Assembly (NCBI RefSeq): GCF_056712565.1
Contig: NZ_CM160072.1
Length of the DNA: 64,000 nucleotides
Strand: one strand, 5' to 3'
Made by a program: the position numbers. Below are positions 40,818 to 43,800 of the stretch, piece after piece. Numbering within the stretch: the first letter of the stretch is position 1; each line of letters starts with the position of its first letter.

Positions 40818-43800
40818 TAAGCGTTATCGCTCGCGCATACCCGATTGCGCCCGGCCTGTTTAGCGAGATAAAGCCGACGGTCGGCCAGTGACTGGAGTTG
40901 TTCAAAATCATAATCACCGGTTTCCTCGCTGCTGCTTACCCCCAGCGAGGCACTAATGCGTATCGTCGTACTCTTGGCGATCAACATCTCTTTTTCATTT
41001 AGCTTCAGGCGAATACGTTCTGCAACCTCCGCAGCCTGCGTCAGACTCGCGCCGGGCAGAATCACACAAAACTCCTCACCACCGACCCGCCCGGCAACGT
41101 CCTGCGCACGCAAGGAACTGCTAATTAATCCGGCAGCATGAGAAAGAACACGGTCGCCCGCCTGATGACCAAAGCGGTCATTAATCGCTTTAAAATGGTC
41201 AAGGTCGACCTGAATGACAGAAAAAGGATGTTGGTGCGTCTGACACAATTTAGCGAGCGGACGGGCTTTTTCGAACAGTGCGCCACGGTTATATAAACGC
41301 GTTAAGGTGTCGTGCCACGCCTGCCACTGCAACGAGCTTTGCAAAACATACATGTTGCTAACCATCCGGCGAATCACATACCAGGAGATGAGTAACATGG
41401 TGGTAAAGAGCGCCCACAGCAGAGTTAATGCAATGCTGATACTGCCGAAATCACCACGCACGCCTTCGCTTAGCGTATGGACGCGCACCAGCACACCGTC
41501 GAAATGGTCCAGACGTTCCCAGCTAACATAACGACTGTTCATACGAATGCCGCCCCGCGTGTCATGTTCCATTGCCTGCGCCAGCAAGGCCAGTTCACGA
41601 GGATCAAAAATATTCCCTGTTGGATGGTCAGGATTGGAAGAGGTCAAAAATCTCAGCTTACTGTCATAGAGCTGATACTCACCATCGAGGTTTTTATCGA
41701 TGGCGTTTCTTAAAAATTGCTGCATAGTACGCACGGGAATACTCATCCCCAGCACGCCATACCAGTAGTTATTACTGTCTACCGGAACACTGACGGTAAC
41801 CTGCGGTTCAGTATTGCTGGCGTGTTCCGGTTGCGAAGTGAACCAGCGTACCGCGCGGTGACGATTTTCTCGTTGCGAATGGCCGATAAACCAGGGTTGG
41901 GTGACATAGCCGTAATAACGCGTTGGTACATTGCGCGTAAACAAGGTCGGCTGCGTCGAAACGTAAAATCCAGCACGCGAGACATACATCGCCTGTTCAA
42001 CCATCGACGAGGAGTTGTGCGCCAGTCGCAGCAAGTAACCAACTTCCAGTGCAGCGGTAATTTCATTGTCGAGGCTTTCATTTTCGCGAGACAGGAGATT
42101 CCCCTCGCTGACTAATGCATCCGATACGCCATTGACTGGCAGGGTGCGCCGTCGGTTGAGTTCGATTTGCCAGGCGTGCTCGTCGCGATGCTGTTCGAAC
42201 GCGGTTACGGCATTACGCAGAGAGGTGAAATCCAGTGGCGCCACGAGAGCTTCGCGCATGCCATTACGCAAAAAGATCAGTTTGTCGACGTTATACTGCA
42301 AATGCTTATCGAGCGCGTTGGCTACGTTTTCCAGATGATTACGCTGGCTGGAGATATAGGCATCTTCCAGCACCACCACTTCACGCCAGGTGAGCAAGGT
42401 GGAAAAAAGCAATACCACGATAAAGCAGAGATTAACGATATGACCAGGCCCCAGGCGGCGTGCGAGTTTTTTCAACCAGCTCTGGTTTTCCATTTTTGTC
42501 TCGTGCTGCACCCTGACGACTCCCAACCTGCTTTTTTATGATTCTGGCATAACCCGGCGATAGCGTACCGCAAAACAGCGATAATTTTATAATGGTGGCA
42601 TGATAAGACGCGACTATCATTCATTGCAGGCATTGGGACACCAGGCCGGATGTGATCCGGCCTGGTGTTAATGATACCCTTTCAAACTTCTTCCGCAGAA
42701 CGACTCCCCTCCCCCGGAACAAGATCGGTTTCATGAAAAGCTTCCCGCTTGACCCCGTAACCGTCATATCAACGACACTCAACCATACCGCTGGAGTATC
42801 CAGTGACAATCATCCGCGGGCCGCCCTCTTTAACCGTAACTTCCTCACTAACCATAAAGCTCATACTCGCCTCCTTTTTTCGAGTGAAACTTGTTCACCT
42901 TAGTTGAAGATGGCAAATTTTGCATAATAGCCAGTGCGAGTATTAATGTGCCTGACCGCGCATTTTCGCTACTGCTTTCACTCCCAGCACCACGATGCCG
43001 CCGATGATAAATCCAAGAATCAGATTTAAAACAGTCGGTAATATCATCGCCACCACTGCACTTTGCTGCCCGGCGAAATGTTCAATGGCGTGATGCAGCG
43101 GCGCAATACCATGTACCACAATCCCGCCGCCGACGAGGAACATCGCCAGCGTGCCGACAATCGATAATGCTTTCATCAGCCAGGGCGCGATAATCAATAA
43201 CCCTTTACCTAATGCCTGCATCAGCGCGCTGGATTTTTCCGCCAGCCAATACCCCAGGTCATCAATCTTAACGATAACCCCTACCAGACCGTAGACGCCC
43301 ACGGTCACTACCAGCGCGATGCCTGAAAGCACCAGCACCTGATTAAGCAACGGCGCCTCTGCCACAATCCCCAGCGTGATGGCGACGATTTCCGCAGACA
43401 AAATAAAATCGGTACGAATCGCCCCTTTAATTTTGTCCTTTTCAAACTTCAGCGGATCCTGCGCCGCCAGCTTCTCCAGACGCTGCTGGCTCTGCGCTGG
43501 ATCTTCTTTATGTTTACGCGCCTCCAGCATATGCAGCACTTTCTCTACCCCTTCAAAGCAGAGAAACGCGCCACCAATCATCAACAGTGGCGTAATCGCC
43601 CACGGGATAAACGCACTGATGATCAACGCCAGCGGCACCAGAATCACTTTATTGATCAGCGATCCTTTCGCCACGCCCCAGACCACGGGAAGTTCCCGGT
43701 TGGCCCGCACGCCTGAAACTTGTTGCGCATTGAGCGATAAATCATCCCCTAATACACCGGCGGTTTTCTTCGCCGCCAGTTTGCCCATCACGGAGATATC

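Follow-up and report, generated by a model that had tools for sequence, protein, structure and literature searches.

A nonsense allele of the small gene yodC in an extraintestinal pathogenic clone of Escherichia coli

The yodC gene of E. coli is 60 codons long, and in the sequence examined here an opal codon (TGA) interrupts it at codon 32. The question raised by this locus is whether that codon is an error, a recoded or leaky codon, or an ordinary loss-of-function mutation. The sequence, referred to here as the window, is a stretch of 64,000 nucleotides from contig NZ_CM160072.1 (RefSeq assembly GCF_056712565.1). YodC is a sigma-S-dependent small protein whose presence in Salmonella was shown by mass spectrometry (PMC5437024). 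Its gene belongs to an osmotic/stationary-phase cluster of E. coli (PMC2634741), and the protein is still without an assigned function (bioRxiv 10.1101/2025.03.20.643886). The features of the locus are listed in Table 1.

Table 1. Features of the yodC locus, in window coordinates.
Feature	Position	Strand	Description and basis
yodC pseudogene	42682..42864	-	60-codon frame plus terminal TGA, broken at codon 32; translation, alignment, RefSeq annotation
Premature opal TGA replacing Trp32 (TGG)	42769..42771	-	Alignment to intact alleles
Residual ORF	42769..42864	-	31 aa plus stop; sole ORF given here by the mechanical ORF list
Codons 33-60 plus original stop	42682..42768	-	Now untranslated; codon table
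Shine-Dalgarno AGGAGG	42870..42875	-	Intact, 5 nt upstream of ATG; read from sequence, invariant in 8-sequence alignment
Linked upstream SNP	42915	.	Coding-strand C to T, -51 from the yodC ATG; 8-sequence alignment; common to the intact-yodC sister group
Perfect hairpin	42638..42668	-	13-bp stem, 5-nt loop, no T-run, 14 nt past the yodC stop; read from sequence

Minus-strand translation of the gene gives MSFMVSEEVTVKEGGPRMIVTGYSSGMVECR, the premature stop, YDGYGVKREAFHETDLVPGEGSRSAEEV, and the terminal stop. This translation is identical to that of an earlier reading of the DNA made from the sequence alone (the sequence-only reading), which had placed a full 60-codon frame with one nonsense codon at the same coordinates. 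The ATG start is intact. The gene occupies the orthologous position between yedI (upstream) and dgcQ (downstream) and has a near-identical nucleotide sequence. A 361-nucleotide query matched 5,363 of the 5,426 complete RefSeq E. coli genomes that made up the sample. In 5,362 genomes the locus has 98-100% nucleotide identity and the same neighbor genes. Intact YodC (b1957; WP_000009307.1 in K-12 and WP_000009302.1 in B2) shares its locus, 60-codon frame, start codon, and Shine-Dalgarno with the window. Of the 60 codons in the window, 58 encode the K-12 residue. The two that differ are the stop at codon 32 and residue 47, which is Asp in the window and Glu in K-12. This Asp is found in the common B2 allele (WP_000009302.1), which is intact in other strains. 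The sequence-only reading had described one nonsense codon in place of Trp32; the stop at Trp32 stands, but it is not the only departure from K-12.

Codon 32 can be sorted into two states in an alignment of eight sequences. The six sequences with TGG are K-12 MG1655, ST131, E2348/69, O157:H7, strain 317, and Ec-042-T0; only the window and UTI89 have TGA. Trp32, given as the K-12 residue in the sequence-only reading, is therefore right. The derived base is the plus-strand T at 42769, which is C in the intact alleles, and the base that follows the stop is U (UGA-U context). The stop is in frame and inside the ortholog-aligned region, and the ancestral codon is sense (TGG). These are the properties of a nonsense pseudogene of the PGAP "internal stop" class. 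The alignment and the haplotype comparison described below agree with the one-step TGG to TGA change proposed earlier.

The distribution of the two states was determined with 49-mers centered on the codon. The TGA 49-mer is exact in 69 of the 5,426 complete genomes, four of which are re-assemblies of UTI89. An exact match to the TGG version is found in 4,505. The sequence-only reading would have been refuted had TGA been the common yodC allele of E. coli, but by these counts it is the minority allele. The 361-nucleotide query is 100% identical in UTI89, S88, IHE3034, APEC O18, NU14, PMV-1, UM146, and the type strain ATCC 11775. The TGA carriers are K1:H7-type ExPEC/APEC isolates and the type strain, and one carrier is named ST95-32. 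The carrier clone (UTI89, S88, IHE3034, APEC O1, NU14, and ATCC 11775) is taken by us to be the ST95 complex, a label that comes from the strain identities. Only 74 records match the surrounding 25 kb at 99% identity or more, so that the range of the allele is essentially that of the clone. A 25-kb test segment had no perfect match among complete RefSeq genomes. The window strain belongs to the UTI89-type clone as a separate isolate, and it does not differ from UTI89 at the yodC locus.

This distribution bears first on the reading that sequencing or assembly of the window introduced the stop by mistake. The window does contain several private SNPs, and inspection of the read pileup had been suggested with the sequence-only reading. 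However, 69 complete genomes, sequenced by different laboratories on different platforms and assembled independently, share this base and the whole 49-mer. The stop is therefore neither a chance nor an assembly artefact. An error at 42769 is ruled out, and the probability left to this reading is negligible.

Public annotation already flags the yodC pseudogene. RefSeq/PGAP lists a "YodC family protein, pseudo, internal stop" in UTI89 (UTI89_RS28780), S88 (ECS88_RS11405), APEC O1 (APECO1_RS31080), IHE3034 (ECOK1_RS28380), and ATCC 11775 (EAS44_RS10945). All five records have yedI upstream and dgcQ downstream, as in the window. The UTI89 and ATCC 11775 copies are identical to the window across the 361 nucleotides, with TGA at codon 32. 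Among the papers searched, none paired yodC with ST95, UTI89, APEC, or a pseudogene, and most matches to the name were to an unrelated Bacillus NADH oxidase or to yeast ODC. One annotation difference was seen next to yodC. In ATCC 11775 (CP033092.2), yedI (equivalent to 42943-43860) is annotated as frameshifted, while the window and UTI89 have an intact 305-aa ORF. This is either a strain-specific lesion or an assembly indel.

The polarity and number of origins of the stop can be read from its surroundings. The nearest intact allele (strain 317) differs from the window over 361 nucleotides by two transitions, the stop and the C to T change at 42915. The upstream T is present in 77 genomes, nine of which have an intact TGG. 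Six of these nine were fetched, and all six encode an intact YodC (WP_000009302.1). Their dgcQ, dcm, yedJ, drpB, and neighboring porin alleles differ from those of the carriers. On this allele comparison, the upstream-T/TGG genomes are a sister group, separate from the clone. The alternative that they are revertants or a polymorphism within the clone is ruled out by the different alleles in the six compared.

A site-by-site comparison was made between the carriers and the six sister genomes. From 42560 to 45169 the two are the same except at 42769, barring singleton SNPs in individual genomes. The stop is thus the sole fixed difference across this 2.6-kb local haplotype. A chimeric query of 3,381 nucleotides, which joins TGG to the clone-specific dcm block, had no perfect match. 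Its best matches score 6,239 bits, equivalent to one mismatch, and every one of them is a known carrier. From the haplotype identity except at 42769, and the lack of TGG on the clone background, it follows that the stop is a derived state with one origin, that it arose after the upstream SNP, and that it is fixed in the clone as sampled.

The 2.6-kb segment (yodC-yedI-yedA) that is identical to the sister group ends at a sharp boundary near 45170. Beyond it, from approximately 45170 to 48700 (vsr-dcm-yedJ-drpB), the carrier block is about 3% divergent from the sister group and strain 317, with roughly 100 SNPs in 3.5 kb. This pattern suggests that the dcm/vsr block was imported by recombination. 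On the other side of yodC, three of the sister genomes (SCU-172, MSB1_4I, and AF3) contain a Mu-like prophage in dgcQ (equivalent to approximately 40817-42511), adjoining the intact yodC. Their dgcQ is annotated as partial and lacks the C-terminus, a separate inactivation in the same neighborhood.

The residue that was lost is strongly conserved. Twenty full-length homologs were aligned, from Escherichia, Salmonella, Citrobacter, Kosakonia, Enterobacter, Lelliottia, Klebsiella/Raoultella, Cronobacter, Franconibacter, and Pantoea (at least nine genera). Trp32 is invariant in all 20 and lies inside the invariant run GMVECRWYDG. The segment from W32 to L48 contains 12 invariant columns. Among eight E. 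coli alleles, yodC shows nine synonymous differences and three conservative non-synonymous differences (V5I, E47D, and S56P). These counts are consistent with purifying selection on yodC outside the carrier clone.

Intact K-12 YodC matches the Pfam family DUF2158 (PF09926) over residues 9-47 with a score of 31.4 bits. The 31-residue stub left by the stop scores 16.8 bits, under the gathering cutoff of 22.3 bits, and the C-terminal remnant has no match to PF09926. Judged by these scores, the DNA of the window is clearly a yodC ortholog, yet its encoded product is not a member of the DUF2158 family. A scan of NCBIfam gave no match for YodC.

An AlphaFold2 model of intact YodC, built from the homolog alignment, has a mean pLDDT of 86. 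It contains five strands (residues 8-11, 18-24, 27-33, 38-44, and 48-50) and a short C-terminal helix, and Trp32 is within strand 3 of this SH3-like barrel. The stub covers predicted strands 1 and 2 and most of strand 3. It lacks the end of strand 3, strands 4 and 5, and the C-terminal helix. The lost part thus holds residues that are both conserved and structurally required, as is characteristic of a nonsense pseudogene. The best structural match to the model is cyanobacterial NdhS/Ssl0352 (PDB 6a7k and 3c4s), a small SH3-like beta-barrel also with five strands, with a TM score of approximately 0.73 over 56 residues. Sequence identity to NdhS/Ssl0352 is 18-23%, and the Foldseek E-value is approximately 5e-3, above a strict threshold. 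Unlike NdhS, YodC in E. coli has no NDH-1L context. The next structural neighbors are KOW and Tudor barrels, and a profile search of PDB sequences with YodC returned nothing significant. The likeness to NdhS is at the level of the fold only and does not speak for a common function.

An in-frame UGA could also be recoded as selenocysteine, and the selenium-metabolism genes yedE and yedF are present in the same window. The evidence at the codon itself is against this. No SECIS-like stem-loop was found 3' of the UGA; the 50- and 60-nucleotide windows past it fold like shuffled sequence (z = -0.97 and -0.14, respectively). An Rfam scan gave no match. The homologous column in the 20 relatives is invariant Trp, never Cys or Sec, and the UGA is a recent derived SNP. 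Selenocysteine insertion at this codon is excluded by the folding, the Rfam scan, and the Trp column, as the sequence-only reading had held, and its likelihood is next to nil.

A second way to retain some YodC is through a leaky stop. Of the E. coli stop codons, UGA is the leakiest. Its principal near-cognate reader is tRNA-Trp(CCA), and the residue inserted by read-through would thus be the native Trp. The gene would then be attenuated, with low-level production of wild-type YodC, rather than dead. The intact start signals fit this reading, as does the undecayed downstream frame. Against it, basal read-through of UGA is typically well below 1-3%, and the two z-scores given above indicate no stimulatory structure downstream. 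The stop is not conserved beyond this one clone (69 of 5,426 genomes), and with this restricted distribution nothing supports programmed read-through. The leaky-stop reading is very unlikely. There is also only a slim chance that the UGA is "self-correcting", with the clone running YodC in a strongly attenuated and possibly RF2- or growth-phase-dependent state, and with attenuation or loss selected when the clone emerged. Re-initiation to give a C-terminal fragment is excluded, as the codon table contains no in-frame ATG, GTG, or TTG past codon 32.

The stop is very probably a loss-of-function nonsense allele, an ordinary pseudogene that is clonally inherited. A single coding-strand G to A transition converted the sole Trp codon of the gene (TGG) to TGA. 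The change occurred once, on a B2 haplotype, and is now fixed in the K1:H7 ExPEC/APEC clone, including the window strain. The yodC mRNA is probably still made under sigma-S control because the promoter region, the Shine-Dalgarno, and the start codon are intact. Translation would end after 31 residues, and the stub is probably still produced. Because it is missing the end of strand 3, strands 4 and 5, and the C-terminal helix of the predicted structure, the stub would be unable to form the barrel, and it is likely to be unstable. Apart from trace UGA read-through, yodC would be functionally dead. The loss was probably neutral and may have reached fixation by drift or by hitch-hiking at the founding of the clone. 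Codons 33-60 show zero further fixed changes in the site-by-site haplotype comparison. An undecayed remainder is expected for a young lesion and also fits continued weak constraint.

The mutation itself is of an expected kind. In intact yodC, 21 of the 540 possible single-base changes (3.9%) make a stop. The only stops that can be reached by transition are TGG to TAG and TGG to TGA at Trp32, and all others need a transversion. Transitions dominate spontaneous mutation, and TGG is a classic target for transition-type nonsense. Trp32 is therefore the likeliest break point of yodC. The mutated C sits in ATACCAAC. A hotspot of 5-methylcytosine deamination at a Dcm site (CCWGG) was considered, with dcm and vsr located 3 kb away, and is ruled out because the ancestral yodC coding sequence has no CCWGG.

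The window contains another stop at a Trp codon. The yedE gene (selenium-metabolism membrane protein YedE/FdhT) at 20680-21885 on the plus strand has a TGG to TAG change at codon 149, position 21125. The sequence-only reading had presented the yodC stop as a second G:C to A:T nonsense change within 22 kb of this lesion. Both changes are present, but their proximity has no meaning. The 49-mer of the yedE stop is found in none of the 5,426 complete genomes, and UTI89 and IHE3034 have G at the site and an intact YedE of 401 aa. The yedE stop is either private to the window strain or a base-call error in its sequence. Because one stop is private and the other is clone-wide, the two are independent and of very different age. 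That both are G:C to A:T changes at Trp codons is as expected from mutation bias.

The remaining differences within the window were compared in the same way. Against UTI89, 14 SNPs and 2 indels were counted over the 64 kb. The window-private changes that could be polarized with IHE3034, APEC O1, or S88 are G to A, C to T, C to T, G to T, and T to G. This is the usual AT-biased spectrum and carries no mutator signature. A link to yedE, or a local mutator signature, is rejected because the yedE change is private and the window-private SNPs show only the usual bias from G:C to A:T or T:A. In sum, the yodC stop is neither an error nor a case of recoding, and it has no link to the lesion in yedE.

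Within the loss-of-function reading, the loss may have been either neutral or adaptive. In the adaptive case, inactivation of yodC would have been selected in the ExPEC clone, by trimming of an antivirulence gene or of the stress regulon, and would not reflect mere drift. In favor of this, no other substitution in the 2.6 kb is fixed between the carriers and the sister haplotype, and the stop itself is fixed without revertants in a globally successful clone. Elsewhere the gene appears to be under purifying selection, by the allele counts given above and by a core that is invariant across genera. However, one SNP is a sample of one. Approximately 3.9% of the possible single-base changes in yodC give a stop, and a clone fixes whatever mutation its founder carried. 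Other ExPEC lineages showed no independent inactivation, and the ST131, E2348/69, and Nissle-type alleles are intact. There is no known yodC phenotype. Selection for the loss is unlikely.

As a loss-of-function allele, the yodC stop is a natural knockout in a major ExPEC lineage, and YodC would be dispensable for that lifestyle. It also adds to the examples of successful extraintestinal pathogens in which small genes have decayed. The UTI89/S88/APEC O1-type clone can conveniently be recognized by this one SNP. Carrier and sister-group strains form a ready isogenic-like contrast for the study of sigma-S-regulated YodC.

The flanks of the gene contain two further elements. Upstream, a minus-strand CTATTAT at approximately 42924-42930, just past the yedI stop, is a putative sigma-S-type -10 (C-TATTAT) that was read by eye. 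The SNP at 42915 lies a few bases downstream of it. A sigma-70 promoter scan gave no promoter upstream of yodC. Downstream, the hairpin listed in Table 1 was not called by a terminator scan, and its Rfam matches are weak and sub-threshold. From its sequence it is probably a transcript-end or REP-like element.

Two observations were made elsewhere in the window. The intergenic region between a porin gene and hchA contains a homopolymer G-C13 tract at 49804-49820; UTI89 has two C fewer here, and IHE3034 three fewer. This difference is either a tract-length polymorphism or assembly noise. Adjoining tRNA-Asn and the ybt (yersiniabactin/HPI) genes, at approximately 58435-59697 on the plus strand, is the tyrosine-type integrase of the High Pathogenicity Island, which is annotated as pseudo with an internal stop in UTI89. 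The UTI89 equivalent of the 64-kb region has only two annotated pseudogenes, yodC and this integrase.
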